NCBI GenBank assembly: GCA_009392915.1
Contig: CP045477.1
Coordinates: 32,001 to 96,000, forward strand
Length of the DNA: 64,000 nucleotides
Origin: Candidatus Forterrea multitransposorum CG_2015-17_Forterrea_25_41
GTDB taxonomy: Archaea; Iainarchaeota; Iainarchaeia; Iainarchaeales; CSSED10-239
Reading direction: 5' to 3'
Notes under the pieces: generated by a model
Told to the model about the DNA's origin: nothing
Seen by the model: only the letters and a program-made list of their open reading frames with translations
Databases searched by the model: none
Part shown: positions 5,618 to 63,210 of the stretch, piece after piece
Numbering within the stretch: position 1 is the stretch's first letter
Layout of the letters: each line of letters opens with the position of its first letter
Program-made: the position numbers and the translations under genes

Positions 5618-5699
5618 GCAGAGGTGGCGGAGTGGTCAAACGCGCCAGCCTTGAGAGCTGGAGCCTTGCGCTACACGAGTTCGAATCTCGTCCTCTGCG
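5618..5699 (+). tRNA. tRNA-Ser (anticodon UGA), class II with a long variable arm
   Basis: Cloverleaf as read: acceptor GCAGAGG/CCUCUGC; anticodon stem CCAGC/GCUGG with loop CUUGAGA; T-arm ACGAG-UUCGAAU-CUCGU; long variable arm. Confidence 0.8.
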
Positions 5700-6084: not shown

Positions 6085-6166
6085 GCAGAGGTGGCGGAGT
6101 GGTCAAACGCGCAAGCCTGGAAAGCTTGAGCCTCGTGCTACGCGAGTTCGAATCTCGTCCTCTGCG
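6085..6166 (+). tRNA. tRNA-Ser (anticodon GGA)
   Basis: The acceptor, D- and T-arms are nearly identical to the tRNA at 5618. Anticodon stem CAAGC/GCUUG with loop CUGGAAA. Confidence 0.8.
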
Positions 6167-6197: not shown

Positions 6198-6286
6198 GCA
6201 GAGATGGCGGAGTGGTCAAACGCACAAGTTTCGAAAACTTGATTAAGGTTTTTTCCTTTACATGAGTTCAAATCTCATTCTCTGCG
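6198..6286 (+). tRNA. tRNA-Ser (anticodon CGA) with an AT-rich variable arm
   Basis: Acceptor GCAGAGA/UCUCUGC; anticodon stem CAAGU/ACUUG with loop UUCGAAA; variable arm AAGG-UUUUUU-CCUU; T-arm AUGAG-UUCAAAU-CUCAU. Confidence 0.7.
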
Positions 6287-13398: not shown

Positions 13399-15465
13399 AT
13401 GTTTTGGTTTTCTTTTTTATATATGTATCTTAATAAAAATGCTATTTCTCCATTAATAGCAAGCATTTTAATTATTGTTGTAGTTGTTGCAGTTATTGGT
13501 GTGATTCTATTATGGGGTAAAAACTTTACAAATGAAAGTTTAACTTCCACTTATACTTTTTCACAAGATAAAACTGTTTCTGATTTTGTTTGGCAAGATG
13601 ATATTACTGGTAAAAATCTTTTTATAAAAAACACACATATATCATTAAGTAAAACTATTATTGGTTATAAAATAAACAGTTCCTTAGATTATGCTTATCT
13701 TAATAAATATCATTATCTTGATGAATCTTTTTTATTATCTAAAAATTCCATTGCTCAATTAACTTTAGGTTGTGTTCCAGAAAAGAATTTTTCAATTGAA
13801 CTTTTAACAGACTCTAATGAATATATTTCTTTTCCTGTCACTTCTAAGTTTTTTGATCCTTCAGAATGTACTTTTTCTTTTTCAATAACTTCTCCTTTGG
13901 AAAATTCAATCAATGCTTTAAATTCTAGTATTTCATTTACTTCTGAAATTTTAAATTCTTCAGGTACTCCTTCTTGTACTTGGATTTCTTCAATTGATGG
14001 TACTTTTTCAACATCTTGTGATGCAACTTATTCTTCTTTATCTTCTGGTTCTCATGATATTAATTTAGTTGTTGAAGATTCTGGTGATATTTTAACACAA
14101 TCAACTTCAATTATTGTAAAAGATTCTTTAGAAAGTATTATTTCTACTCCTTCAAATTCATCAAATCATTTATTTAGTGATACAATTTCATTTAGTGGTA
14201 CTGCAGATAATAATTTTGGTTCTCACACTTGTTCTTGGACTTCTTCTTTAGATGGTTCTCTTTCAAGTGATTGTAGTTTTAGTTCTAGTTTATCTCCAGG
14301 CACACATACTATTACTTTACAAGTAACTGATTCTCTTGAAACAGCATCTTCAAATATTTCTATAGATGTTTATGCTTTATTAGTTGCTTCTGTTTCTCTT
14401 CCTGCTAATAATTCTACAAAATCTTTAGGAAGTCCTATCTCTTTTTCATCAAGCATTTCTGGAGGCGATGGATCTTATTCTTGTAGTTGGACAGATAATG
14501 GTTCTCCTTTAAGTTCTAGTTGTTCATTTAGTCATACTTATCCACAAGGAAGTTGGTCTGAATATCAAGATATGCCTCAAGGTAGAGATTATCATGATTG
14601 TGTAGGTGTTGGTGATAAACTATATTGTTTTGGAGGAGATGATTCTACTTATAATGTAGAAAGAACTACTCAAATTTATAATTCTACAACAAATACTTGG
14701 TCTTTAGGTGCAAATATGCCTGCAGATAGAGAGCTTCCAGCATGTAGTTATTATAATGGAATAATTTATTGTATAGGAGGATTTAATAGTTCTTGGGATT
14801 ATGTTAATTCAAATTATGCTTATAATATTTCTACAAATTCTTGGTCTAGTAAAACTTCTATGCCAACAGTAAGAGCTGAACATGATTGTACTGCCTTAGA
14901 TGGAAAAATTTATTGTTTTGGTGGAAATAAAGATGGTGGAGGTGCAAGTAATCTTCTTGAAATATATAATATTTCAACAAATTCTTGGTCAACAGGTACA
15001 AGTTCACCTTCAGGAAAAGCAAATCATAATTGTGAGGGTTTAAATAATAAGGTTTATTGTATTGGTGGTACAACTACTACTTTAATATATGATGTTTTAT
15101 CTGATTCATGGTCTACAGGTACAACTATCTCAACATCAAAATCATCTGGAGCTTCTGATTTATATGGTACTAAAATTTATTATGGAGGAGGTTCTTCTGC
15201 TGCACTTTTAGTTTACGATACTGTTTTAAATAGTTGGTCAACTCTTGCTAGTTTACCTTATTCTAACAGATCTTATATAGGTTGTGGAATTGCAGATAAT
15301 ACTTTTTATTGTGCAGGAGGAGATTCAAGTCAAGGTAGAGAAACATACATGGATAAATTACATGGATATTCTATAGGTGCTACAGGAACACATGAAATTG
15401 AATTAAATGTAAGTGATGGTTATGGTCAAACTGCTTCTAATACAATAAATATTAATGTTCAATAG
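13399..15465 (+). CDS. Archaeal pilin-N (class III signal peptide) protein with Cys-containing Ig-like repeats and a Kelch-type beta-propeller
   Basis: The N-terminus NKNAISPLIASILIIVVVVAVIGVILLW matches the archaeal type IV pilin N-terminal domain. There are four repeats of ...SCSWTxxxDGSxSSxCSFS.... Kelch-like repeats follow (YCFGG...YN..TN.WS, YCIGG..., KIYCFGG...). Confidence 0.6.
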   Translation: MFWFSFLYMYLNKNAISPLIASILIIVVVVAVIGVILLWGKNFTNESLTSTYTFSQDKTVSDFVWQDDITGKNLFIKNTHISLSKTIIGYKINSSLDYAYLNKYHYLDESFLLSKNSIAQLTLGCVPEKNFSIELLTDSNEYISFPVTSKFFDPSECTFSFSITSPLENSINALNSSISFTSEILNSSGTPSCTWISSIDGTFSTSCDATYSSLSSGSHDINLVVEDSGDILTQSTSIIVKDSLESIISTPSNSSNHLFSDTISFSGTADNNFGSHTCSWTSSLDGSLSSDCSFSSSLSPGTHTITLQVTDSLETASSNISIDVYALLVASVSLPANNSTKSLGSPISFSSSISGGDGSYSCSWTDNGSPLSSSCSFSHTYPQGSWSEYQDMPQGRDYHDCVGVGDKLYCFGGDDSTYNVERTTQIYNSTTNTWSLGANMPADRELPACSYYNGIIYCIGGFNSSWDYVNSNYAYNISTNSWSSKTSMPTVRAEHDCTALDGKIYCFGGNKDGGGASNLLEIYNISTNSWSTGTSSPSGKANHNCEGLNNKVYCIGGTTTTLIYDVLSDSWSTGTTISTSKSSGASDLYGTKIYYGGGSSAALLVYDTVLNSWSTLASLPYSNRSYIGCGIADNTFYCAGGDSSQGRETYMDKLHGYSIGATGTHEIELNVSDGYGQTASNTININVQ

Positions 15466-16915: not shown

Positions 16916-17746
16916 ATGAATGAAATAATAAGTTATATAATAATTGGTATTTTACAAGGGGTAGTTGAATGGCTTCCTATAAGTTCTCAAGGAAACTTAA
17001 TGGTTTATTTATCAAATGTTTTAAATTTATCTTCTCAATTAAGTTTAAATTATTCTATTCTTTTACACATAGGTACTCTTTTAGCAGCTATTGTTTATTT
17101 TTATAAAGAAATTAAATCTCTTTTAACTGTTAAAAATATTTCTTTACTTTTTAAATATAATTTTAAATTATTAAAAATTAAAGAAAGTAATTTAGATAAA
17201 GATTTTTCTTACTTAAGATTTATTTTTATAACAGTTATTGTAACTCTTTTAATTTCAGGTCCAATTTATTTTTTAATAAGTGATGGAATAAATAATTTCA
17301 ATATACTTTTAATAAATTTAATTATTGGTCTATTATTATTTATTACTGGTTTTTTAATATTCTTTTCAAGAAAAATATTTTCAAAAAAACCTGTTCTTTC
17401 AATAAAAAATTCTTTTCTTTTAGGTTTATTTCAAGGTTTTTCAATACTTCCAGGGTTAAGTAGAAGTGGGCTTACAACTTCTTTACTTCTTTTTAGAGGT
17501 TTTAGTCCAGAGAAAGCTTTCAGAATTAGTTTTTTAGTTTCAATTCCAACTATTTTTATTGGAGAAATAGCACTTTTAGTTTTTAATGGTTTATTTTTCT
17601 CTCCATATATTTTAATTTCAATAGTTGTTTCTTTTATTGTTGGTTATTTTACAATTGATCTTTTGATTAAATTTGCAAAGAAAATTAATTTTTCATATTT
17701 TTGTTTTATTTTAGGATTTATATATATTCTAACTTATTTTATTTAA
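16916..17746 (+). CDS. uppP: Undecaprenyl/dolichyl-diphosphatase, UppP/BacA family
   Basis: GILQGVVEWLPISSQGNL (compare the UppP motif EGLTEFLPVSSTGHL) and a later LSRSGLT motif. Polytopic membrane protein of 276 aa. Confidence 0.7.
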   Translation: MNEIISYIIIGILQGVVEWLPISSQGNLMVYLSNVLNLSSQLSLNYSILLHIGTLLAAIVYFYKEIKSLLTVKNISLLFKYNFKLLKIKESNLDKDFSYLRFIFITVIVTLLISGPIYFLISDGINNFNILLINLIIGLLLFITGFLIFFSRKIFSKKPVLSIKNSFLLGLFQGFSILPGLSRSGLTTSLLLFRGFSPEKAFRISFLVSIPTIFIGEIALLVFNGLFFSPYILISIVVSFIVGYFTIDLLIKFAKKINFSYFCFILGFIYILTYFI

Positions 17747-23211: not shown

Positions 23212-23327
23212 GTTAGCGGCCATAGGGATGGAGAAACACCTGGACCCTTTCCGAACCCAGAAGTTAAGTCTATTGCCGTTTTAGTTCGCTGTTAGTTCAT
23301 GCTAGTAGCGTCTTTAAAGCTGCTAAC
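23212..23327 (+). rRNA. rrf: 5S rRNA (stand-alone)
   Basis: The terminal helix gttagcggc...gctgctaac pairs. The archaeal 5S core is present: ccgaacccagaagttaag. The element is GC-enriched relative to its flanks. Confidence 0.75.
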
Positions 23328-23537
23328 ATTTAATATTTTCTATTTTATAAAAAAGAATTATTAAAAGCTATTTTTTTTAAAAATAATTTTTCTACAAGCA
23401 AAACTTATTTTTTTATAAATAATTTAGTTCTTGTTTAGATAAACTTAAATTAAATCTATTTTTTAAAATTAAATATCTTTTAATATATTTCCCTACACAT
23501 TTATTTATTATAATTATTTATTTAAGGGGAAAAATAT

Positions 23538-25490
23538 ATGATAGATACAAAAACAGAATCAAATGCATTTAATACTTTTTTTACAAAACATAAAAAAATT
23601 ATATTTATATTACTTATTTTTTTAATGGCTTTTGCTGTTAGGGGACATCTTTTAAAATATGACAATATGTTTGAATTTGATACATATTGGCACTTAAGAA
23701 TGACAGGTTATGTTCTTCAAGGAGATTTACCTGATTATGATCCATTAGGTTTCTATGCAGAAGGAGGAACTCCACTTTCAGATAGACCCTCTTTTGTATG
23801 GTATTTAACTTCATTTTTATATATTTTATTTACTCTCGGAGCTCCCTACAATAAAGCTTTACTTATGGAGTTTGCAAGGTTTTTGCCAGCAATCTTTGGT
23901 GCTTTAATCTCAGTTGCAATGTATTTTTTAGGTAAAGAAATTTATAATCGTAAAGCTGGATTTATAATGGCAATAGTTACAGCTACAATTCCTGCATTTG
24001 TTTATAGAACCATGGCTGGTTTTTATGAAGAAGATGCTTTAGGATTTTTATGGATGATTTTAGGTTTTATTTTCCTTGTTAAAGCAATAAAAAATATGCA
24101 TTCAAGAAAACAAAATATAAGATACTCTTTATTATCTGGTTTGTTTTTTGGACTTATGGCTTTTACTTGGTCTGCATTTATTTTGATACCTTTAATTATA
24201 GTTTCATTTTTAATTGCAAATTTAATATACATGGCTTATAAGAATTATTCAAATAAAGATATTGCTTTATTTTTAAAAACCATTGTAATTTCTTTTGTAA
24301 TTTTTGCAGCTTTAGCTTCAATTGCTCAACCTGGTTGGGTAAAGACTACAGGTAATTATGTAATTGATAATATACCTTTAAATAAAGAAAACATAGATAA
24401 ACTTTCAAATAATGTAACTTCAGAAACTGATGTTGTAAAAGCATCTGTTGGTGAGGAAAATACAGGAAAGCAATTTTTCTTATATAAGTATAGTTTCCTT
24501 TTATGGATTCCGTTTGTTGTACTTTTAATAATGCCACTTAATTTATTATTTTCAAAAAAGAAAGATAATTTAACTTTATTACTTTTCTTTTGGATTTTAA
24601 TAACTTTATTGATGGCTTGGTCAAAATTAAAGTTTACATTTTATTTTGGAATACCGATAGCTGTATCTGCTGGATTTTTAATTTATTTTATAAATGAATG
24701 GATTAATAAAAATTCTACAGTTTTAAGAAAAAGAGTGTTTGCAATATTTATTGGTTTAATATTATTAACATCTATTGCTGCAGGTACACATGAAGTTTAT
24801 TCTAAAGTTCCACATATTGTTGAAAAAACAGATTGGAGGGAATCAATCTTTTGGATTGCAGAAAATACGTCTCCTGATGCAAAAATATTTAACTGGTGGG
24901 ATTATGGTCACTGGATAACTTATTTTTCAGAAAGAAAGGCCAGTACTGATAATACTAATTCCAATATATCAGGTACTAGTGACTTTGGATTATTTATTTT
25001 AAGTCAAGATTTAAATTATACAGCAAATCTTATGAAAAAATATGATGCTGATTATTTTATAGCAGATAATGGTTATTTTAATAGATATGCTTCATTTGGA
25101 TCTTACGGTTTTATTACTACAAATTATCAAGACCCAAGAATTAAAAGTTATGTTTCATTTTCTTTAGATTGTTATCCTGGCTCTGTAGGTGATGGTAAAC
25201 TTGCATACAAATGTGGAGAAAATATATTTACAGAAGAAGAATTTAATTCATTTCCAACAGTCTGGAATGATAAACCAAAAGATGTAATGAATGGAGTTCC
25301 AATCTTTATGTATCGTTTAGAAGATAACTCTAAATTATTTATTTTAAATACATCTTCAAATAATTCTACATTTGCAAAAATATGGTTTAATGAAAATATT
25401 CATTCTCAATTATTTTCTTTAGCTTATGAAAATGGGGCTGTAAGAATCTATGAAGTTAATAAAGAAAAAGTGAACGAGTATGCAGAATAG
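23538..25490 (+). CDS. aglB: Oligosaccharyltransferase AglB (STT3 homologue)
   Basis: 650 aa with a polytopic N-terminus and the WWDYGHWI (WWDYG) catalytic motif. Confidence 0.85.
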   Translation: MIDTKTESNAFNTFFTKHKKIIFILLIFLMAFAVRGHLLKYDNMFEFDTYWHLRMTGYVLQGDLPDYDPLGFYAEGGTPLSDRPSFVWYLTSFLYILFTLGAPYNKALLMEFARFLPAIFGALISVAMYFLGKEIYNRKAGFIMAIVTATIPAFVYRTMAGFYEEDALGFLWMILGFIFLVKAIKNMHSRKQNIRYSLLSGLFFGLMAFTWSAFILIPLIIVSFLIANLIYMAYKNYSNKDIALFLKTIVISFVIFAALASIAQPGWVKTTGNYVIDNIPLNKENIDKLSNNVTSETDVVKASVGEENTGKQFFLYKYSFLLWIPFVVLLIMPLNLLFSKKKDNLTLLLFFWILITLLMAWSKLKFTFYFGIPIAVSAGFLIYFINEWINKNSTVLRKRVFAIFIGLILLTSIAAGTHEVYSKVPHIVEKTDWRESIFWIAENTSPDAKIFNWWDYGHWITYFSERKASTDNTNSNISGTSDFGLFILSQDLNYTANLMKKYDADYFIADNGYFNRYASFGSYGFITTNYQDPRIKSYVSFSLDCYPGSVGDGKLAYKCGENIFTEEEFNSFPTVWNDKPKDVMNGVPIFMYRLEDNSKLFILNTSSNNSTFAKIWFNENIHSQLFSLAYENGAVRIYEVNKEKVNEYAE

Positions 25491-26508
25491 TGTTTTATTC
25501 TTTATATTTTTAGGTTTTTCTTTTTTCTTTTCTTTATTTTTATCTTTATTTTTAGTTCCAATGTTTATTAAAATTATTTCTAAGACTTCATATTTAGGAA
25601 AAGATATGAATAAATACAATAAAAATTTAGTTTGTGAACTTGGAGGAGTTCCAGTTTTTTTAAGTTTTATTTTTTCAATTTTTTTAATAATGTTATTAAA
25701 TTTTGTTTTAATTTCAATTTTTAGTTTTAATTTTTCAGTAATTGATTTCATTCAGTTTAGTTTAATTATTATTGCTTTATTTTCAATCTTTTTTGTAGGA
25801 TTTATTGATGATATTTTAGGTTGGAAAAAAGGAATTAGTCAAATTCAACATTTTATATATCCTTTAGTATTTTCAATTCCTTTAATCATATATGCTTTAA
25901 TTTATGAAATTACAACTCTTTATGTTCCTTTACTAGGTGTTTTTAATGTTGGCTTACTTTATGCATTTATTCTAGTTCCAATTGCATTTACTGCAACTAC
26001 AAATCTTTTAAATTTACTTGCTGGATTTAATGGTCTTGAAGCTGGTATGGGAATTATAGTTTTTTTAACAATTTCAATTTTTTCTATTTTTCAAGGAAAC
26101 ATTACTCTTGTAATTATTTTATTTGCATGGATTGGTGCACTTTTAGGTTTTTTAAAATTTAATAAATTTCCATCTAAAATGTTTCCAGGAGATATTATTA
26201 CTTTAATTAATGGATCTTTAGTTGGAATTTCTGCAATTGTTTTAGGTTTAGAATTATTAATTGCTTTTTTAATTGTTCTTTTTATAATTGAATTTATAAT
26301 TAAAGCAAAACACAAGTTTAAAACAGAATGTTTTGGATTAATTTCAAAATCTGGAATTATAAAACCAAATCCTAAGGGTGGTTCTTTAACTCATGTAGTT
26401 TTAAGCAAAGGAAGGTTTACTGAAAAGAAATTAGTTAATGTTTTTTATATTTTACAAGGAGTAATTTCTGCAATTTCATTAATTCTTTTCTTTATTGTGT
26501 ATATTTGA
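25480..26508 (+). CDS. GT4 / MraY-WecA-family UDP-GlcNAc:dolichyl-phosphate GlcNAc-1-phosphate transferase (AglH-like)
   Basis: Motifs IGFIDDILGW and NLLNLLAGFNGLEAG; polytopic membrane protein. Its start overlaps the aglB stop. Confidence 0.7.
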   Translation: MQNSVLFFIFLGFSFFFSLFLSLFLVPMFIKIISKTSYLGKDMNKYNKNLVCELGGVPVFLSFIFSIFLIMLLNFVLISIFSFNFSVIDFIQFSLIIIALFSIFFVGFIDDILGWKKGISQIQHFIYPLVFSIPLIIYALIYEITTLYVPLLGVFNVGLLYAFILVPIAFTATTNLLNLLAGFNGLEAGMGIIVFLTISIFSIFQGNITLVIILFAWIGALLGFLKFNKFPSKMFPGDIITLINGSLVGISAIVLGLELLIAFLIVLFIIEFIIKAKHKFKTECFGLISKSGIIKPNPKGGSLTHVVLSKGRFTEKKLVNVFYILQGVISAISLILFFIVYI

Positions 26509-26514
26509 TGTATT

Positions 26515-27348
26515 ATGAGGTTAATTTCTTTTAATAAATTTTTAATAATTTCAAGGCCTATTCTTTTCCCACTTATTTTTATTTGTTTATTGGTTGCTTT
26601 TTTTTATACTTTTAAATCTTTTAAATTTTTAAATTTAATTGATTTAATATTTATTTTATTATTAACTTTTTTAGTTCCTTTTTTTACATTTTCAATAAAT
26701 GACCTTGGAGATTATTATTCTGATAAAAAAAATGTTAGGAAAAAAAATATTCTTTTTGGTAAATTTCAAAAAGATTTATTATTTTTTAAAGATTCAATTT
26801 ATTTATACAATTTTTTAATATTTTTAATTTTATTTATTTATTCTTTAATATTTTATAATTTAGAAACAGTAATTATTTTGTTATTACTTTTATTTTTTAT
26901 TTATTTTTATTCTGCAAAACCAATTAGATTTAAAGAAATTTTTATTTTAGATTTTTTATCAAACGGAATAATTACATTGCTTTGTTTTGCTTTAATTTAT
27001 TCTTTTAAATATTCTTTTTTTGATTTACCATTAGGAATTTATTTAATTTCTTTGGCAATTTCTTCCTATCATTTAATTGCTGCTCAATTAGATTATTCTC
27101 CAGATAAACTTGCAAATCAAAAGACAACTATAATATTAATAAATAATAGACATATAATTTATTCATTAACTTTATTACTAAATGTACCTTTATTTTTAAT
27201 TTCTTTTAATTCTATTTTTAGATATTTAGTTTATTTAAATATAATAATAATCTTAACTTTATGGTTTTTTCCAAAGATAAATAAAAAAATAGTTTTTTGT
27301 GTATTTATTATTTTTTGGACTTTTATTTGTATTTTTTATTTTATTTAA
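26515..27348 (+). CDS. UbiA-family prenyltransferase
   Basis: First Asp-rich motif NDLGDYYSD (NDxxDxxxD) and second DYSPD (DxxxD). 277 aa, polytopic. Confidence 0.55.
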   Translation: MRLISFNKFLIISRPILFPLIFICLLVAFFYTFKSFKFLNLIDLIFILLLTFLVPFFTFSINDLGDYYSDKKNVRKKNILFGKFQKDLLFFKDSIYLYNFLIFLILFIYSLIFYNLETVIILLLLLFFIYFYSAKPIRFKEIFILDFLSNGIITLLCFALIYSFKYSFFDLPLGIYLISLAISSYHLIAAQLDYSPDKLANQKTTIILINNRHIIYSLTLLLNVPLFLISFNSIFRYLVYLNIIIILTLWFFPKINKKIVFCVFIIFWTFICIFYFI

Positions 27349-37553: not shown

Positions 37554-39140
37554 ATGTTAGAAGACAAGTATATTACTTTTCCATATATTAAGAAAAATAC
37601 TGTGGAAAAAAGAGTTTATCAAGAACTATTGACTGCAAAAGCTATTGAAACATCTACATTAGTTGTAGCTCCAACTGGTCTTGGAAAAACCATTGTTGCG
37701 GTTTTACTTATAGGGTTTATATACAATCCAAAAAAATCAATTTTATTTTTAGCACCAACAAAACCTCTTGTCTCACAACATAAAAAATCTTTAGAAAAAG
37801 TTTTAGAAGTTGATCCTGATAAAATAATTTTTTTAACAGGACAAAATCCTCCTGAAAAGAGAAAAGAAATTTATTCTCAAAAAGGGTTAGTTATTTGTGC
37901 TACTCCTCAGACAATAGATAATGATATTAAAAATAATCTTTTAAAAGAAGATAATTTTAATTTAATAATCTTTGATGAAGCTCATAGAGCTGTTGGAGAG
38001 TATGCTTATGTTTCTATTTCTTCTTTTTTTAAAGAAGAAATAAAAAGACTTGCATTAACAGCATCTCCTGGTTATAATAAACAGAAAATTAAAGAAATTG
38101 CTGATAATTTAAAAATAAAACATATAGAAATAAAAACTGAATCTGACTTAGATGTTATTGATTATGTTAAAGATATAGAGATTGAAACTGTTTTTGTTGA
38201 ACTTGATGACGTTTCAAAAAAAATATCTAAAATTTTAGATTCTTTTATTTTAAAAAAAATAGAACTTTTAAGAAAACTTAATTTATCAGTTTCTTCAAAC
38301 TTTACTAAAAAACAAATATTAATGGTTCAACAACAATTGTTTAAAAGACTTGAATCTTCTAAAAATTCATTAAATTTTGTAGCACTTATAAATGTGTCTT
38401 TAGCTTTAAAAGCACTTTATGCAAAAGAATTAATTGAGACTCAAGGTTTTTTACCTCTTAAACATTATCTTGAAAAAGCATTTATTGATTCTAAATCTTC
38501 AAAAACTACTAAAACTTTAAATCAATTTGTAAATTCTAAAGAAATTTTAGAAACTTATTCTTTAATAATTAATTTAGATTATTCAAAACCAATTTATTCT
38601 AAGGAAAAAGAAATTGTAGAATTGGTTAAAAACTTTATTTTAAATAATCCTTCTTCAAAAATATTAATTTTTAATAATTTTAGAGATTCTGCTCAAAATA
38701 TTTCAAATTACTTAAATAAATATGATAATTTAAATAGTGTGAGATTTGTTGGACAATCTTCTAAAGAAAAAGATAAAGGATTATCTCAAAAAGAACAAGC
38801 TCAAATAATTTCTGACTTTAGAGATGGTTTAAACAATGTTTTAGTGTGTACTTCTGTTGGTGAAGAAGGACTTGATATTCCTTCAGTTGATTTAGTTTTT
38901 TTTTATGATGCAGTTCCTTCAGAAATTAGGTCTATACAGAGAAGAGGAAGAACAGGTAGATTTAATGCTGGTAAAGTTATTATTCTTTTAAATAAAGATA
39001 CAATTGATGAACATTATTATTATGTTTCTTTAAAGAAAGAAAAAACTATGAAAAAAAATTTAATTTCCATGTCAAGAGATGGAGATTTGAAAATTGTGAA
39101 AAGAAAGAAAAAAGTTCAAAAAAATTTAGGTGACTTTTAA
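37554..39140 (+). CDS. Hef/FANCM-like SF2 helicase (helicase domains only)
   Basis: Motif I VVAPTGLGKT, motif II IIFDEAHRAV, motif III LTASPG, motif VI QRRGRTGR. No nuclease domain lies in the same ORF. Confidence 0.75.
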   Translation: MLEDKYITFPYIKKNTVEKRVYQELLTAKAIETSTLVVAPTGLGKTIVAVLLIGFIYNPKKSILFLAPTKPLVSQHKKSLEKVLEVDPDKIIFLTGQNPPEKRKEIYSQKGLVICATPQTIDNDIKNNLLKEDNFNLIIFDEAHRAVGEYAYVSISSFFKEEIKRLALTASPGYNKQKIKEIADNLKIKHIEIKTESDLDVIDYVKDIEIETVFVELDDVSKKISKILDSFILKKIELLRKLNLSVSSNFTKKQILMVQQQLFKRLESSKNSLNFVALINVSLALKALYAKELIETQGFLPLKHYLEKAFIDSKSSKTTKTLNQFVNSKEILETYSLIINLDYSKPIYSKEKEIVELVKNFILNNPSSKILIFNNFRDSAQNISNYLNKYDNLNSVRFVGQSSKEKDKGLSQKEQAQIISDFRDGLNNVLVCTSVGEEGLDIPSVDLVFFYDAVPSEIRSIQRRGRTGRFNAGKVIILLNKDTIDEHYYYVSLKKEKTMKKNLISMSRDGDLKIVKRKKKVQKNLGDF

Positions 39141-39618
39141 GAAAAAATGTGATATAAATATGGATTTATTAGAATTTATAATTGAAGCAAAAAAAAATAC
39201 TTATGCATCTTCAAAAATAACTGATAAATTAAATAAAGATGGTTCTAAAGAACTTATATTTGAAAAAGATTCTTTAAAATATATTGATAAATATTATGGT
39301 TTTAATCCTTTTTCTGGTCAAGAAATTATTTTTAAAGATTATAAGGGTATTTGGTCTATGAATTATTATGGTTTTATAAAAGATCATTTAGTTTCTGAAA
39401 AAGAAGTTTATTCTTTTTTAAAAAAAGCTTTACTTAATGTTGAAAAAAGATTTCCTTTAAGAGGTCCAAATATTTATAGAGAAGGAGATTTTGAATATTT
39501 TTCAGATACTTCTGGATTTATTGAAGAATTTAATGGAAAGGAAAGAATTGATTATAATGGTAAAACTGTATATCATGGTTTTTATCATGGTGGTCTTTTA
39601 AGAGATAAATTAATTTAA
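39130..39618 (+). CDS. Hypothetical protein (162 aa) inserted between the Hef helicase and the ERCC4 nuclease
   Basis: Its ORF overlaps the helicase stop. There is an alternative start at MDLLEFI. No family was recognised. Confidence 0.35.
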   Translation: MTFKKKCDINMDLLEFIIEAKKNTYASSKITDKLNKDGSKELIFEKDSLKYIDKYYGFNPFSGQEIIFKDYKGIWSMNYYGFIKDHLVSEKEVYSFLKKALLNVEKRFPLRGPNIYREGDFEYFSDTSGFIEEFNGKERIDYNGKTVYHGFYHGGLLRDKLI

Positions 39619-39637
39619 TTTTAAAAAGTGATTTTAA

Positions 39638-40306
39638 ATGCCTTTAAAAGAAATAAATATTATTTGCGATACTAGAGAAAAAGCTTCTTCAGTTTTATCA
39701 GAAATTTCACTTCTTTCAGATAATGATATAAAAGTTAATGTTATTTTAGAACAATTATCTGTTGGAGATTATCAAATTTCAGACGATATTGTAATTGAAA
39801 GAAAAACTTTATCTGATCTTGAAACTTCAATTATTGATGGTAGAATATTTTCTCAATTGCAAGATCTTTCTTTTGTTAAAAGATCTGCTTTAATTATTGA
39901 AGGTGATCCTTTTTTATTGTATAATAGTAAAAGAATAAATGGTAAAGCACTAATTGGTTTAATTACTTCTGTTGGACTTAATTATAGAATTCCTTTATTT
40001 TTTACAAAAAATCAAAAACAAACTGCTTTATTTTTGTGTACCATGGCAAAAAAAGAACAACTTAAAAATGGAACTTCTGAATCTAAACTAAGGTATCAAA
40101 AAAATAAAATGTCAGGTACTCAATTCCAATTATTTATAATGCAGTCTTTTCCAGATGTAGGACCTACTCTTGCAAAATCTATTTTAAAAGAATTTAAATC
40201 TATTAAAAATATTTCAAATGCAAGTATTGAAGATTTATTAAAAGTTCCAAAACTTGGTCCAAAAAAAGCTCAAAAAATAAAATATCTTTTTGAAAGAGAA
40301 TATTAG
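39638..40306 (+). CDS. ERCC4-type (XPF/Mus81/Hef) nuclease with C-terminal HhH2
   Basis: GDY...IERKTLSDL (the ERK nuclease motif) and a C-terminal LKVPKLGPKKAQKI helix-hairpin-helix. Confidence 0.75.
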   Translation: MPLKEINIICDTREKASSVLSEISLLSDNDIKVNVILEQLSVGDYQISDDIVIERKTLSDLETSIIDGRIFSQLQDLSFVKRSALIIEGDPFLLYNSKRINGKALIGLITSVGLNYRIPLFFTKNQKQTALFLCTMAKKEQLKNGTSESKLRYQKNKMSGTQFQLFIMQSFPDVGPTLAKSILKEFKSIKNISNASIEDLLKVPKLGPKKAQKIKYLFEREY

Positions 40307-40897: not shown

Positions 40898-41293
40898 ATG
40901 GTTGAATGGATTAAAAAATCAAAAAGAAAAAAAACAGGTGGAATAGATAACTCTGTTAATTTTAAAACAAAAGCATTATCTGATAGAGGTGGATCTTTTG
41001 TTAAAACTGTTGTTGATGATTCTGAAAAGAAATTTAAAGAAAGAACAAGAGGCGGAAATGAAAAATTAAAAATTTCAAAAGCATCTACTGTTTTAGTTTC
41101 AGACAATGGTAAATCTTTTAAAGCAAAAGTTTTAAATGTTGTAGAAAATCATGCAAATAAACAATTTGTAAGACAAAAAGTAATTACAAAAGGTTCAATT
41201 GTTGTAATTGAAAAAGATGGTAAAGAACATAAAGCAAAAGTTACTTCAAGACCAGGACAAACAGGTCAAGTTACTGCTGTTTTAGTAAAATAG
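40898..41293 (+). CDS. rps8e: Ribosomal protein S8e
   Basis: KRKKTGG near the N-terminus, an RTRGGNEKLKI motif, and a C-terminal VVENHANKQFVRQKVITKGSIV typical of S8e. Confidence 0.65.
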   Translation: MVEWIKKSKRKKTGGIDNSVNFKTKALSDRGGSFVKTVVDDSEKKFKERTRGGNEKLKISKASTVLVSDNGKSFKAKVLNVVENHANKQFVRQKVITKGSIVVIEKDGKEHKAKVTSRPGQTGQVTAVLVK

Positions 41294-41303
41294 ATTTTAA
41301 GAT

Positions 41304-41846
41304 ATGTTAACTTTTTTTAAAAAAATTAAAAGAGATTTGAAAACTAAAAAAAAAATAAAAGAATCTCTTTATTTTTTATTATTTTTTATAATTTCTTTTT
41401 CTCTTATTTATTTATTATTATCAAAAACCTTAATCTATAATTTTATAAACTATTTTTATGGTTCTCTTTCAAGTATTATTCTTAATATTTTTTATGGAAT
41501 TAATACTTCTTTTTATTATGATTTTATAGAACAAGTAACTTTTCTAATAATTCCAAGTATAGATTATCCTGTTGCAATTGTTTTCTTATGTACTGGTATT
41601 TTAGAATTTTCTTTAATTGTAAGTGCTATTGTTTCAACTATTGGTTTTTCTTTAAGAAAGAAAATAAAATGGGTATTAATTTCTTCTTTCCTTGTAATTA
41701 TTTTTAATCTTTTAAGAATAACTTTTACAATATTTATAATAGATTATTTTAATTTAGAAATAGCAGATTTTTTCCATGGTTTTTTATTTAGATTATTTTT
41801 AGTAATTATTGTTATTGGTACTTATTATTTTTTCTTAAAATCTTAA
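41304..41846 (+). CDS. Exosortase/archaeosortase-family membrane protein (small)
   Basis: Candidate catalytic triad in the conserved order: Cys (FLCTGILEFS), Arg (NLLRIT) and His (FFHGFLF). 180 aa, polytopic. Confidence 0.45.
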   Translation: MLTFFKKIKRDLKTKKKIKESLYFLLFFIISFSLIYLLLSKTLIYNFINYFYGSLSSIILNIFYGINTSFYYDFIEQVTFLIIPSIDYPVAIVFLCTGILEFSLIVSAIVSTIGFSLRKKIKWVLISSFLVIIFNLLRITFTIFIIDYFNLEIADFFHGFLFRLFLVIIVIGTYYFFLKS

Positions 41847-41850
41847 ATTA

Positions 41851-42162
41851 TTATTTTTTAGGACCTTTCTTAATTTTTGGTTTTCTTTTTTTACAAGCTT
41901 CATTTTGAATAACAATTTCTTTTGTTAATTTATCATTCTTTCTTTGAAGACTTGCAATCTCACATAAAATAATTTCAGCAAATTCTTTATTTCCTTTATT
42001 TGATCTAATCATGTCTTTACAGTATTCTATGTTAATGTTATTAAGTTCAATTTTTTCAGAATTAGAAATTGTACCTACTCTATTTTTTTCTTGCAATTGA
42101 TTTTTTCTTTTTGCAATTGGTGATGATGAATGATTCCATTTTTGATTTAATTCAGTAGTCAT
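41851..42162 (-). CDS. Basic hypothetical protein (103 aa)
   Basis: It overlaps the upstream ORF by 4 nt (ATGA), which suggests translational coupling. Confidence 0.35.
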   Translation of the reverse strand: MTTELNQKWNHSSSPIAKRKNQLQEKNRVGTISNSEKIELNNINIEYCKDMIRSNKGNKEFAEIILCEIASLQRKNDKLTKEIVIQNEACKKRKPKIKKGPKK

Positions 42163-42551
42163 TTTTGCATCTCTTCTTTAATGATTTTTTTCACTTGTTC
42201 AATAGTTGTATACTCTAAAGGATTAATATTATCAATTACATATTTCATTTCTTTTAAATCTTCAGCTCTTGCATATCTTTTTGAAAACATCTCAAGATTT
42301 GATTCAATCCCTTTCATTCTGTTTTCAATATCTTTCATTTTTTTAAAAATTTCTTCAATTTTTTCATTAGATGCAAAAGAGCCTTGTGAATCTGAAGTAT
42401 TGGCTGAAGCAATCTTTTTATTTAAAACAAGGATGTTTCTTCCAAGTATCTTTTCATTATGCACAAGATATTTTATCTTTTGTCTTAAAACAAGAAGACT
42501 TGATTGTAAAGCTTTAATATCTTGATACACATTCTGTGATTGATCAACCAT
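42159..42551 (-). CDS. Coiled-coil hypothetical protein (130 aa)
   Basis: Heptad-rich sequence, co-oriented with the downstream ORF and coupled to it. Confidence 0.35.
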   Translation of the reverse strand: MVDQSQNVYQDIKALQSSLLVLRQKIKYLVHNEKILGRNILVLNKKIASANTSDSQGSFASNEKIEEIFKKMKDIENRMKGIESNLEMFSKRYARAEDLKEMKYVIDNINPLEYTTIEQVKKIIKEEMQK

Positions 42552-42745
42552 AGTTAGTTCTTCTCTTTTGTAAATATTTTATATATTTATATAGTAATAG
42601 ATAATATTTAAAGATGTTTGTTTTATTTTTAAAGATTTCTTTTTTTAAATTAACTTATAATAATTTAGTTCAGTTATTAAATTAAATACCTTTATAAACT
42701 ATTTGTCTCATAAATATATAAAAATAAATGAGGTGTTAAAAGGAT

Positions 42746-43102
42746 ATGAATAAAAAAATATTAAATATTTTTGGAGTACTTTCTGTTTTAGTTTTTTTAA
42801 TGTTTATTTCATTAAACTTAAGTGCAGAGAGATTTGATGTTACTGATATTTCTTACTCTTATGTAAGTTATAATTATCCATATTACCCAAATGGTCAATA
42901 TTATAATAGTTACTATAATTATTATGATTATTATATTCCAACAGGTTATGTAAATTCATATACAGGCTATATTAATTATCCTGCTTACTCAAATTATGTT
43001 CCAACTTACTATAACACTTCATATGTAACTTATCCTTCATACTATAACAACTCAATCAGTTATGGAAGTCCAGAGGCATATGTTTCTTTTAGTTGGCAAT
43101 AA
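42746..43102 (+). CDS. Small secreted tyrosine/asparagine-rich low-complexity protein
   Basis: Signal peptide MNKKILNIFGVLSVLVFLMFISLNLSA. The mature region is about 35% Tyr, e.g. YNYPYYPNGQYYNSYYNYYDYYIP.... Confidence 0.5.
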   Translation: MNKKILNIFGVLSVLVFLMFISLNLSAERFDVTDISYSYVSYNYPYYPNGQYYNSYYNYYDYYIPTGYVNSYTGYINYPAYSNYVPTYYNTSYVTYPSYYNNSISYGSPEAYVSFSWQ

Positions 43103-43129
43103 ATAAAAAAGAGGATTTAAAGATTTATT

Positions 43130-46100
43130 ATGAACTATAAATATTTTTTTGTATTTTTATTAGTAGTTTTATTTTCATCAATGGTATTTTCATACACAAT
43201 TGGTTTTGATTATGCTGAAGTTAGAACTACAAGTTATCCTAACTATCTTAATTATCAATATGCTCATTACTATGATAATATTGATCTAAGATATGGTGTT
43301 TATGGAAGTGGAATTTCTTCTCCAGTAACAATAATTGTTTCTCCAAAAGTTTATGGAATAACAACTACTGGTCAAAGAGTCTTTGTTCATAATATACAAA
43401 CTCATTCTTTTTCAATGAATCCTTCTTCTTTTTATACTTATAGTTATAATCCAATGTTTTCTTTTGATCCTGCATATCAAAGTTATGAAGTTGTTTTAGA
43501 TCTTCAAAGTTCAGATGGATCTTTTAATAATTCTGTAAGTAGATATGTTTATTCTCAAGGAACAAATCCAAACCCTGGAGGAGATGATCCTACAGGTGAT
43601 GATCCTAATGTAGTTAGTTGTGATGATTTTTATGTTTCAGGAATGGAAGATATTTATTTAGATGAAGATTCAAGAGAATATTATAATCTTTATTTAGTAA
43701 ATTCTGTTGACTTGCCACTTACAATAACTTCAGTTACAGTTTCTCCAAATAATCCTACTAACTTAGAAATTGAAGATATTACTTATCCTTTTACAGTTTC
43801 TGCTCTTCAAACAAGAAGTGCACAAATTGAACTTTTTACAGATACAGTTTCTTCTGATTATTCAAATAGTTTTCAAATAGAAGTTAAAGGTAAATATGAT
43901 AATTCTTTAACTTGTGAAAAAACATATAATGTTAATTATAGAATACTAGATGCTGAACTTGAAAATAATGGTTCTTGTAGTGATATAAGAATTTTAGATG
44001 ATTATTTTACAATGAGTGATAATTCTTCTAAAACTTTTGAAATTGAAGTTTCAAATGCTTCTCAAGATTATTATTTTGAAGTTGATGATATTGATTTAGA
44101 TACTACAAATGATTCAATAATTGAAGCTAGTGTTAGAAACACAATTGATAAAATATATACAGATTCTTCTAAAATTTTAAAAATAAATGTTTCTTCAGAT
44201 GACACTTCTTTTTATAGAACTGAAAAAATTGATTTAGAACTAACAGGTTATTTAAAAAGAGAAAACAGAGAAGATAAAAAATGTAGAATAAGAGAAGATG
44301 TTTCAATAAGAGTTTCTCCAGATTCTTCAACTGGAAATACTTCAAATGAATGTGATGATATAAAAATATATACAAGAGATGTTTTCCAAGATTCTCAAAT
44401 AACAGAAAACTACTCTCTTCAAGAGGGTTTTTATATTTATAATGGAACTAATAAAAAATTTACTGTATCAGGTATTAACTATAAAGACAATACTATGTAT
44501 GCAGATATCTTTTCAAAATCTTTTGATTATACTCTTTATCCTAGATCCTCTAATGCTTTAAATTTTGATATAAGAACAAGTGAAGTTTCAGAAAATAAAC
44601 TTTCAAATGCAGAAATTTCTATTCAAGGATATTTTGAAGGTGGACTTTCTTGTAGTTATTCAGATATAACTTCAAACTTTAATTTAACTATAAGAGAAGA
44701 AAATGATTTTTGTTCAAATGTAGGTATTTATGATGACAGTTTTGTTGAAGGTGAAAATTATTTTACAGTTTATAATAACACTAATAAAGACTTTACTGTA
44801 AATGATATTATTTCTCAAAATTCAGTTAACTCAAATGTAGGTGTGATTGATTCTTCTTTTAAAGTTTTAAAAGATTCACAAAAAACTTTTAGAGTTGGTT
44901 CTTCAGGAAATGGTAGTTTTGAGCTTTTAGCTAAAGGTGTTTTTTCAGATGGCACTTCTTGTGACTATACTCAAACAAGCAGTGGTTATTTCAATAGTGA
45001 TTCTGGTTATGATTTTTCAGATACTTCTTGTGAATTTGAATTTAATTATCCAAATGTAAAATATATCTCTTTAAACGGAGACTCTCTAAATTTTGATTTT
45101 AGAAACTTAACTGGAAAATCTGGTGAGATTAGACTTTCTGCAGTTGGTGCTGTAATTGAAGATCCAATTATTAAGTTTTCTTCATATTCATCTTTTAATA
45201 AAGAAATAGATCTTTTAAATATTAAAAATCCAAAAATGGTTCTTTATACAATTGAAATTTACGGTTGTTCTAAAAAATCATATTTTACAAATCTTTATCC
45301 TTTAGGAAATTCTATTCAAGGAGATGTTTCATTTTTAACATATCCTAGTAATTTAATTTCAACTAAAGATAAATTTATAAGTTCTTTTTCACTTAAAAAC
45401 TCAAGTAGTTTTTCAGAAGATGTTGAAATTAAATTTTCAGGTTTTACAAGTGCATTTAATTTTGTATCTTCTCCTTATCCATTAAACCCAAATACTTTCT
45501 CATCTTCAGATAATGTTTCAACAGTTACAATAAATCCAAACTCTACAAAAAATATTTATTTTGGAGTTGATGTTTTAGAAAATGCAGAATATAAAAAATA
45601 TAATGGATATATTGAAGTTTATAGTAATAATAAATTATTATTTAAAGAGCCTTTATCAATAGATAGATCAATTACTACTAATAATTTATTAGTAAATACT
45701 ATGGTTGAAAAGACATCTGTTAAAAATACTGTTCTTTTAACATTTACTTTTGAAAACAAATTACCTGACCTTACAAGAGAACTTTATTTATCTTTTGAAG
45801 ACGAGAATAGTTTTGAAGTAGATGGTAATAGAAATATATCTGTTGCACCATTAAGTGTACTTGAAAGAAGCTTTACTGTTAAATATAATGAAGGTTCTTT
45901 ATTTAAGTATAATTTAATAGATACAGATAATTCTTCTCTTGCATATTCTGGAGAAGTAGATTTAAAAGAAATTGATAATTCTTCAAATCTTTTATCTGGA
46001 TTTTTTACTCTTTCAGATACAAAAGGATTTATATTTGCAATTGTTCTTATATTACTTATAGCTTTAATTATTTTCTTAATAGTTTATGGAGATAAATCTA

Positions 46101-46273
46101 GAGCTAAAAGAAAACAAGAAACTAAATCAGTTTTAGAAACACAAGAAAAAATAAAAGAAGAAATTAGAAAAGATAATTTTTCTAATATTACTAAGTCTGA
46201 GATTATAATAGGAAATAAGCCTATTATAAAGCCTGCAGAACCAAGACAGATTACTTTAGGTGAGCTTGATTAA
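43130..46273 (+). CDS. Large secreted cell-surface protein (S-layer/adhesin candidate) with a C-terminal TM anchor
   Basis: 1047 aa. Signal peptide, a Tyr-rich N-terminal module, a PNPGGDDPTGDDPN linker, then long beta-rich S/T/N-rich repeats. C-terminal hydrophobic helix GFIFAIVLILLIALIIFLIVYG plus a basic tail. Confidence 0.55.
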   Translation: MNYKYFFVFLLVVLFSSMVFSYTIGFDYAEVRTTSYPNYLNYQYAHYYDNIDLRYGVYGSGISSPVTIIVSPKVYGITTTGQRVFVHNIQTHSFSMNPSSFYTYSYNPMFSFDPAYQSYEVVLDLQSSDGSFNNSVSRYVYSQGTNPNPGGDDPTGDDPNVVSCDDFYVSGMEDIYLDEDSREYYNLYLVNSVDLPLTITSVTVSPNNPTNLEIEDITYPFTVSALQTRSAQIELFTDTVSSDYSNSFQIEVKGKYDNSLTCEKTYNVNYRILDAELENNGSCSDIRILDDYFTMSDNSSKTFEIEVSNASQDYYFEVDDIDLDTTNDSIIEASVRNTIDKIYTDSSKILKINVSSDDTSFYRTEKIDLELTGYLKRENREDKKCRIREDVSIRVSPDSSTGNTSNECDDIKIYTRDVFQDSQITENYSLQEGFYIYNGTNKKFTVSGINYKDNTMYADIFSKSFDYTLYPRSSNALNFDIRTSEVSENKLSNAEISIQGYFEGGLSCSYSDITSNFNLTIREENDFCSNVGIYDDSFVEGENYFTVYNNTNKDFTVNDIISQNSVNSNVGVIDSSFKVLKDSQKTFRVGSSGNGSFELLAKGVFSDGTSCDYTQTSSGYFNSDSGYDFSDTSCEFEFNYPNVKYISLNGDSLNFDFRNLTGKSGEIRLSAVGAVIEDPIIKFSSYSSFNKEIDLLNIKNPKMVLYTIEIYGCSKKSYFTNLYPLGNSIQGDVSFLTYPSNLISTKDKFISSFSLKNSSSFSEDVEIKFSGFTSAFNFVSSPYPLNPNTFSSSDNVSTVTINPNSTKNIYFGVDVLENAEYKKYNGYIEVYSNNKLLFKEPLSIDRSITTNNLLVNTMVEKTSVKNTVLLTFTFENKLPDLTRELYLSFEDENSFEVDGNRNISVAPLSVLERSFTVKYNEGSLFKYNLIDTDNSSLAYSGEVDLKEIDNSSNLLSGFFTLSDTKGFIFAIVLILLIALIIFLIVYGDKSRAKRKQETKSVLETQEKIKEEIRKDNFSNITKSEIIIGNKPIIKPAEPRQITLGELD

Positions 46274-63128: not shown

Positions 63129-63210
63129 GCAGGGGTTCCCGAGTGGTCAAAGGGGCAGGACTTAAGATCCTGTGCTTAGTGCTTCGCAGGTTCGAATCCT
63201 GTCCCCTGCA
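63129..63210 (+). tRNA. tRNA-Leu (anticodon UAA), class II
   Basis: Acceptor GCAGGGG/CCCCUGC; anticodon stem CAGGA/UCCUG with loop CUUAAGA; long variable arm; T-arm GGUUCGAAUCC. Confidence 0.8.

Follow-up and report, generated by a model that had tools for sequence, protein, structure and literature searches.

A small archaeosortase-family enzyme and its candidate surface-protein substrate in Iainarchaeia

We analysed a 64,000-nucleotide stretch of the genome of the DPANN archaeon Candidatus Forterrea multitransposorum CG_2015-17_Forterrea_25_41 (contig CP045477.1, positions 32,001 to 96,000), hereafter the window, whose GC content is about 25%. It encodes a 180-amino-acid (aa) membrane protein of the exosortase/archaeosortase family and, downstream, a 1047-aa surface protein. 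By analogy with the archaeosortase ArtA and its PGF-CTERM substrates, we hold it reasonably probable that these two proteins are a dedicated archaeosortase-substrate pair that works in the same manner. The initial annotation had offered a non-canonical sortase-substrate pair as one of two readings. This one is favoured by the linkage of the two genes in 14 of 14 related loci, by a conserved motif ahead of the transmembrane (TM) helix and by the C-terminal module of the relatives. The closest relatives of both proteins are labelled Candidatus Iainarchaeum or Diapherotrites (DPANN). These organisms are uncultivated and represented by metagenome-assembled genomes (MAGs).

The mini-archaeosortase

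The enzyme gene occupies 41304–41846 on the forward strand. Its product, at first called archaeosortase-like, matches the TIGR04178 (exo_archaeo) model over residues 91–177 with 44.9 bits against a cutoff of 23 (E=1.1e-11), which bears that identity out. The same cutoff is passed by all eight other tested family members at 32.7–48.4 bits. With 21.1 bits, the match to the Pfam model PF09721 narrowly misses the gathering score of 25.7. NCBI already names the protein 'exosortase/archaeosortase family protein', and judged by its profile matches it is a genuine member of the family.

The catalytic residues had been noticed in the expected order of Cys, Arg and His, and the alignments uphold them. 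They are Cys96 (codon 41589–41591), Arg138 (41715–41717) and His158 (41775–41777), invariant together with G98 and N135 in an alignment of 57 homologs that reaches down to 24% identity. The three are also invariant in separate alignments of 18 close and 18 diverse homologs.

The hydrophobic segments of a polytopic protein are visible in the sequence. The AlphaFold2 (AF2) model made from the 57-sequence alignment has a mean predicted local distance difference test (pLDDT) of 91.9 and a predicted template-modelling score (pTM) of 0.82. It contains five helices (residues 15–41, 43–62, 99–111, 117–148 and 151–179) and a small beta sheet (69–92) that runs into the Cys96 loop. Because the N-terminus is strongly basic and the 116–122 loop is basic too, the positive-inside rule places the Cys96/Arg138/His158 triad, as a prediction, near the outer membrane face. 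Solved structures in the exosortase/archaeosortase superfamily were looked for and none was found.

No named subfamily cutoff (ArtB/C/D/E/F, pacearchaeosortase, heimdallarchaeosortase and XrtF/G/H/M/X/Y) is reached by the window protein or by its eight relatives, and the ArtA model does not match the 180-aa protein at E<=1. We denote as clade A the 14 loci of the window's sortase clade, taken from assemblies and GTDB genomes, with a sortase identity of 46–93%. The best clade-A scores, over the window protein, P0031 and P0065, are 30.8 against 170 for XrtX, 28.8 against 86 for XrtH, 26.8 against 125 for ArtD, 25.1 against 102.75 for XrtG and 20.1 against 130 for heimosortase. Among the distant homologs the top subfamily score is 47.6 against 170 for XrtX, on P0069, and the paceosortase model matches only the outlier P0079, with 12.8 against 80.

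The enzyme is like several short NCBIfam subfamilies, namely ArtD (TIGR04175), ArtE (TIGR04124), pacearchaeosortase (NF033505), heimdallarchaeosortase (NF045528) and XrtG/XrtH/XrtX, which have 150–200 model positions around the TIGR04178 core. These include lineage-specific types of DPANN (Pacearchaeota) and Asgard archaea, each with its own signal flavour (Heimdall-CTERM/Loki-CTERM). However, their models stay far below cutoff here, for example heimosortase at 13.6 against 130 and ArtD at 12.6–26.8 against 125.

Searched exhaustively with a profile, 1.84 billion representatives yielded 416 clusters at E<=1e-3, 155 at E<=1e-10 and only two at E<=1e-30. Hence, by these profile counts, the window's sortase clade is a small and distinct branch among broad 160–230-aa 'mini-sortases'. 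One match, P0138 (1102 aa), carries a mini-sortase domain in its first ~185 residues, followed by short repeats and a pilin-like hydrophobic segment. It is either a real fusion or a gene-call artefact, and since its downstream part looks unrelated and pilin-like we left it out of the evidence.

The sorting module and its linkage to the enzyme

The putative substrate, the large surface protein of 1047 aa, is encoded at 43130–46273 on the forward strand and starts with a Sec-type N-terminal signal peptide (about 43130–43195). It ends, as initially described, in a TM helix and a basic tail. The C-terminal region reads NLL-SGFFTL-SDTK-GFIFAIVLILLIALIIFLIVYGD-KSRAKRK, then 52 residues. The signature motif SGFFTL (residues 956–961; 45995–46012) is the proposed site of recognition and cleavage. 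The spacer SDTK (962–965), the helix (~966–988) and the KSRAKRK cluster (989–995) follow at 46013–46114; AF2 begins the helix at residue 964.

Across 14 distinct lineages the family consensus of the motif is L-[ST]-[GA]-F-[FL]-x-[LF], where the Leu usually precedes. The frequencies at the positions after it are T10/S3/A1, G10/A4, F12/L2, F8/L5/S1, variable and L9/F5. The motif is followed by a spacer of 4–9 small or polar residues, a hydrophobic stretch of 16–23 and 3–8 Lys/Arg in the next ten residues. Motif, spacer, TM helix and basic cluster are all kept while the flanking sequence diverges. In L004 and L009–L014 the protein stops 3–17 residues past the helix, which is the textbook tripartite layout. 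Examples of this extreme C-terminal module, each running up to the stop, are PLSAFFSLRNTSFILLGVVALIVLFLIFRKR and IFAGFLTLGSTTNVFLIFVLLILIIMFFNKIKKLNKKK.

The window protein carries more. The initial annotation noted about 55 residues after the helix. The count was close, with 59 residues after the hydrophobic stretch. As a concern for a sorting signal it loses its force with a clade-specific tail and a published ArtA signal that is not C-terminal. The cytoplasmic tail (residues 996–1047; 46115–46270, forward strand) is absent in L004 and L009–L014, and ends in the conserved RQITLGELD (46244–46270), of the family pattern KQ[IV]TLxELD. In the alignment a variable tail with a conserved terminus is found in the window, L005–L008 and P0039–P0045. 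Nine close homologs share the KQ[IV]TLxELD end as well as the basic cluster, the helix and the [ST]GFF[ST][LF] motif, but the remaining tail is not conserved among them. Because this module lies at the very C-terminus in the relatives L004 and L009–L014, the 52-residue tail is, from this comparison of sequences, an addition in one sub-clade (window, L003, L005–L008).

That the protein has no canonical PGF-CTERM, as first stated, holds. We compared seven representative signals with the PGF-, PEF-, VPXXXP-, Loki-, Heimdall- and GG_III-CTERM and LPXTG models. No curated model reaches its cutoff on any of them, and PGF-CTERM (TIGR04126) gives no match at E<=10. The best scores below cutoff are Loki-CTERM at 16.7 against 19.9, Heimdall-CTERM at 15.3 against 24, PEF-CTERM at 13.6 against 23 and the LPXTG anchor at 14.6 against 15.9. 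In these matches only the helix and the basic residues are aligned.

The module is also rare in its surroundings. A regular-expression and hydropathy scan of 550 open reading frames (ORFs) of at least 60 aa, from the window and L001–L016, finds it only in the large proteins and in one 65-aa ORF, which is probably spurious. Among all window ORFs no other protein has a C-terminal TM helix with a basic tail. Neither the 64-kb window nor the related loci that we searched, roughly 200 kb in total, yielded another candidate substrate.

Each of the 14 clade-A loci encodes, 619–1992 bp downstream of the sortase gene, a large-protein homolog of 30–94% identity, and in all 14 this neighbour bears the tripartite module. 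The genes between them vary by locus and include a thymidylate-kinase-like gene, different small ORFs and a membrane protein. Since the clade-A loci share their neighbourhood, we examined distant homologs as well. These, which we call clade B, score 72–97 bits at 27–32% identity and lie in another context, beside a T2SSE-type ATPase.

Two clade-B loci are informative on the signal. In L018 (47% GC), whose neighbourhood is unlike that of the window, a 989-aa protein with Ice_binding and Big_13 matches is encoded 130 bp upstream of the distant sortase homolog. It has a Thr/Pro-rich linker and then the end TTTPLTGFSVLGVSGNTLGYVLLAIGAIIAVFGIRGTWKKR, up to the stop. In L017 a protein of >1160 aa, 6.5 kb from the sortase homolog, ends in PTAFFGLDTTSSISFGVIFILVILIILTVNQIVKKKKNI / LGPTAFFGLDTTSSISFGVIFILVILIILTVNQIVKKKKNI, likewise up to the stop. 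Outside the signal, neither protein shows homology to the window protein. As these passengers are unrelated to it, the module behaves as a portable signal.

The other clade-B loci differ. In 14 further metagenome loci of this clade there is no such signal-bearing neighbour within 10 kb. In L034 the adjoining protein has a TM helix and a basic tail, but with a different motif ahead of the helix. With most loci having other partners and no nearby signal, clade B speaks for the portability of the signal and not for the adjacency. Tight one-to-one adjacency thus belongs to the window's clade, and clade B lends limited independent support.

Clade B has features of its own. Its sortase homologs in L017, L019–L021 and L024–L036 have 200–235 aa and consistently stand beside two genes, one for the T2SSE-family ATPase, which is divergently oriented, and one for a giant protein of 2200–3090 aa. 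The giant protein has one TM helix, lacks a C-terminal signal and conserves the cytoplasmic N-terminus ISEKLAGIYTKAEDKYFD.LDFLD.KGLPVY.YSDFFE. This partner set may reflect a different substrate logic.

Proposed mechanism and its rivals

What the sequences establish is that the enzyme belongs to the family and keeps an invariant triad, that the two genes are linked and how the signal is built. On this basis we propose the following course, whose topology, cleavage, transpeptidation and acceptor are predictions, made for the cleavage and the anchoring by analogy with ArtA. The 1047-aa protein would be exported by its N-terminal signal peptide and held by the C-terminal TM helix. The Lys/Arg cluster, and here also the 52-residue tail, would face the cytoplasm. 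The 180-aa polytopic enzyme would recognise [ST][GA]F[FL]x[LF] just outside the membrane and cleave at the motif through a Cys96 thioester (acyl-enzyme) intermediate. The new C-terminus would then be passed to a membrane lipid, as in Haloferax ArtA/PGF-CTERM. The outcome would be a beta-sandwich ectodomain lipid-anchored on the surface, and a TM-plus-tail fragment left in the membrane.

Several points weigh against such a pair, beginning with the cleavage itself, which is inferred rather than drawn from experiment or proteomics. The others also favour the main rival explanation, which we consider unlikely: the large protein would be an ordinary type-I TM-anchored protein with its tail as a functional handle and its [ST]GF motif as a structural element, while the sortase would have its substrates elsewhere and the adjacency would be inherited synteny. 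All 14 linked loci are one collinear lineage (Hef-XPF-Cgi121-S8e-...-rpL3) between two ribosomal-protein gene clusters, so inherited synteny is a real concern and could account for part of the 14/14 linkage. The conserved KQ[IV]TLxELD end of the 50–70-residue tail hints that the tail is under selection because it stays uncleaved or has a function, and the TM anchor could be kept in the window's clade. The 4–9 polar residues between motif and hydrophobic core are atypical for exosortase signals; the PGF-, PEP- and GlyGly-CTERM motifs abut the TM helix (Haft preprint). Most clade-B loci (L019–L033, L035–L037) have no C-terminal-signal protein within 10 kb of the sortase, and their conserved partners are instead the T2SSE ATPase and a ~3000-aa N-anchored protein that lacks a C-terminal signal. 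Finally, our substrate search in this genome covered 64 of 839 kb, about 8% of it. Against a permanent TM anchor, the motif is the best-conserved element of a divergent C-terminal region and recurs on two unrelated passengers near distant sortases. Six lineages have the motif, helix and basic cluster at the very C-terminus, the linkage persists despite the turnover of the intervening genes, and the regions searched hold no other candidate substrate.

Two other alternatives concern the enzyme. The pair could be real and the enzyme a hydrolytic sheddase or maturation protease that releases the ectodomain, for example into a non-covalent S-layer held by the tyrosine-rich protein encoded next to it; we see only a slight chance for this. 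Limited lipid metabolism is usual in DPANN archaea, and the probably co-transcribed tyrosine-rich protein, present in 9 of the 14 loci, is a possible matrix or adaptor. Moreover, transpeptidation is unproven even for ArtA, whose status as a one-step transpeptidase is unknown according to the Haft preprint. On the other hand, the Cys/Arg/His triad is that of the transpeptidating sortases, the lipid attachment of the Haloferax S-layer glycoprotein is documented to depend on ArtA (PMC6098224), and five of the 14 loci lack the tyrosine-rich protein. Least probable by far is a degenerate or non-catalytic relic, in which the 180-aa protein would keep the exosortase fold but have no part in processing, for instance as a membrane scaffold. 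Its length is well below that of ArtA or EpsH, it falls under the PF09721 gathering threshold and it matches no subfamily model. Yet its Cys, Arg and His, with G98 and N135, are invariant over the 57 sequences and the 416 clusters of similar small proteins, its AF2 fold is confident and curated families are of like size (ArtD 150, ArtE 153, pacearchaeosortase 167 and heimdallarchaeosortase 199 model positions).

The dedicated pair that we prefer has its closest parallel in ArtA/PGF-CTERM. Our statements on ArtA to ArtE rest on a review (PMC6098224) and the NCBIfam models. In Haloferax, ArtA processes the PGF-CTERM substrates and the S-layer glycoprotein is lipid-attached in an ArtA-dependent manner (PMC6098224). 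In both systems the enzyme is a polytopic membrane protein with a Cys/Arg/His triad, and the two enzymes share one superfamily. Both have a large, secreted, multi-domain beta-sandwich surface protein, the candidate substrate here, that ends in a short Gly-Phe-containing motif, a TM helix and a basic cluster. The window enzyme differs in having about 180 aa and about five helices, against an ArtA of roughly 300 aa. Its candidate signal has Ser/Thr/Ala where PGF has Pro, as well as the 4–9-residue polar spacer before the helix. There is apparently one adjacent target here instead of many dispersed ones, and the host is a DPANN archaeon instead of a euryarchaeon. The removal of the TM helix and the lipid anchoring, the same by proposal, are taken from that system (PMC6098224; Haft preprint).

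The tail, too, has a precedent. As cited in PMC6098224, Abdul Halim 2017 reports that H. volcanii ArtA processes a tripartite signal located away from the C-terminus. So far as that account goes, more cytoplasmic sequence follows the tripartite module there as it does in the window. However, the extension in that case, by the same account, is a NifU domain added by gene fusion, whereas the window tail is short, of low complexity, with a conserved end of 8–9 residues, and limited to one sub-clade.

Single-target-per-genome systems beside the enzyme are known, such as JDVT-CTERM with a CPBP-type protease (Haft 2023 preprint). There, as we propose here, a single signal-bearing protein is encoded beside its processing enzyme. 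That enzyme, a glutamic intramembrane protease, belongs to an unrelated family, and its target's signal includes a Cys.

The locus, its neighbours and the cell envelope

The gene order given in the initial annotation is correct, with two small coiled-coil genes between the sortase and tyrosine-rich genes and about 900 bp, measured as 899 bp from the sortase stop codon, up to the tyrosine-rich gene. Unremarked there was the strand. The coiled-coil ORFs at 41851–42162 and 42159–42551 both lie on the reverse strand, divergent from the surface-protein genes, so the sortase and surface-protein genes are not one operon. The tyrosine-rich gene (42746–43102, forward strand) ends 27 bp ahead of the large gene; at this distance the two probably form a co-transcribed unit of their own. 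An Rfam scan of the locus found no RNA elements.

The tyrosine-rich secreted protein is as initially described, with 118 aa and a signal peptide. Its 28 Tyr make up 24% of the whole and 31% of the mature part, and it has no informative Pfam or NCBIfam match. Its gene lies immediately upstream of the large gene in nine of 14 clade-A loci and is absent in L004, L010 and L012–L014. It is thus an accessory and not a universal component.

The second ORF (42159–42551) encodes a coiled-coil protein of ~128–130 aa, whose gene stands between those of the sortase and the large protein in all 14 clade-A loci. Its mean column identity of 75% makes it better conserved than either the sortase or the large protein. 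Its family and PDB matches are only to generic coiled coil, and whether it is part of the system is uncertain. Two antisense ORFs, one of 114 aa within this gene (42181–42525, forward strand) and one of 68 aa within the large gene (44169–44375, reverse strand), are almost certainly not genes, their hydrophobic low-complexity translations being typical of AT-rich DNA.

Housekeeping genes lie on both sides. On the 5′ side are the Hef helicase, DUF5680, the XPF nuclease, Cgi121 (reverse strand) and ribosomal protein S8e, whose gene (40898–41293) ends 10 bp before the sortase start. On the 3′ side is the rpL3-L4-L23-L2-S19-L22 operon. The Hef-like helicase (37554–39140) and the ERCC4/XPF nuclease (39638–40306) are separate genes on the forward strand within 37554–40306. 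The DUF5680 gene (39130–39618) sits between them, as it does in L003, and L004 lacks it. In the relative L001 (823–2600) a bAvd accessory gene and an RVT_1 reverse transcriptase stand just 5′ of Cgi121, a combination that marks a diversity-generating retroelement; the window has no such pair. Elsewhere in the window, four tRNA matches (5618–5699, 6085–6166, 6198–6286 and 63129–63210) span 82–89 nt against a model of 71 positions and could be class II tRNAs or intron-bearing. A stand-alone 5S rRNA gene is at 23212–23328.

The other reading in the initial annotation, that this is the S-layer locus of the cell, gains no support from direct matches. The 1047-aa protein has no S-layer domains in Pfam or NCBIfam, its sequence profile finds nothing in the PDB at E<=1, and its fold matches are generic. 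In the AF2 model the first ~150 residues are of low confidence; about seven beta-sandwich domains (residues ~160–945, pLDDT 70–88) follow. Five conserved Cys pairs are spaced by about 80–100 residues, and the ectodomain is acidic, with a pI of 4.3. Foldseek comparison with the PDB gives generic tandem beta-sandwich arrays at TM-scores of ~0.1, the top 50 matches being arrays of the hydin and alpha-2-macroglobulin type.

Other features fit an S-layer or major envelope protein. It is large and acidic with multiple beta-sandwich domains, like the Haloferax S-layer glycoprotein, apparently single-copy in the regions examined and universal in the clade. It is encoded beside its candidate dedicated sortase and near N-glycosylation genes. 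None of our tests demonstrates this identity, however. The N-glycosylation sequons are not enriched, with 19 observed against 18.5 ± 3.9 expected. A ranking by codon usage, similar to the codon adaptation index and proposed in the initial annotation as a guide to abundance, is powerless here because the ribosomal reference genes themselves scatter from rank 2 to rank 73 of 73.

The N-glycosylation and lipid-carrier genes lie about 16–26 kb from the surface-protein locus. They encode an AglB/STT3 oligosaccharyltransferase, a GT4 (MraY/AglH-like) transferase and a UbiA-family prenyltransferase (23538–27348, forward strand), and a UppP-like polyprenyl-diphosphate phosphatase (16916–17746, forward strand). 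Another probable surface protein, of 688 aa with Kelch-repeat and PKD domains (13399–15465, forward strand), has no sortase signal, and its hydrophobic N-terminus resembles an archaeal class-III (pilin-type) signal.

Our literature search turned up no paper on this signal or on the archaeosortases of Diapherotrites/Iainarchaeia, and none linking archaeosortases to DPANN surface proteins. No existing model for the enzyme subfamily or its signal was found either. The one DPANN S-layer study that we found (Micrarchaeota preprint) left the anchoring unresolved. What is new here is the subfamily with its cognate signal; the logic of a sortase and a tripartite signal is known, and no new principle is involved. 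Three modest peculiarities stand out: the spacer, a conserved tail confined to one sub-clade, and strict adjacency in a setting of ribosomal gene clusters on either side.

A bolder and rather improbable reading is that the locus is a core envelope module of Iainarchaeia, made of the mini-sortase, the universally linked coiled-coil protein, the tyrosine-rich protein and the large protein. The sortase would lipid-anchor the main S-layer protein and, in the window's clade, also release a functional membrane peptide with the KQ[IV]TLxELD tail. If so, the released tail might, for example, link the building of the envelope with a partner in the cytoplasm, for which the coiled-coil protein is one candidate. 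This would be a two-product sortase reaction in DPANN and a first handle on the anchoring of DPANN surface layers.

The attachment of DPANN surface proteins is largely unknown, and for the more probable dedicated pair the locus offers a concrete candidate enzyme and substrate with a definable signal. This signal (L-[ST]-[GA]-F-[FL]-x-[LF], spacer, TM helix and K/R cluster) could be used as a hidden Markov model (HMM) to survey the surface proteomes of Iainarchaeia and their relatives. The pair would extend the exosortase/archaeosortase catalogue by one subfamily and one signal flavour. With 180 aa and a confident predicted fold, the enzyme would also be an attractive minimal model for a structure-less family.

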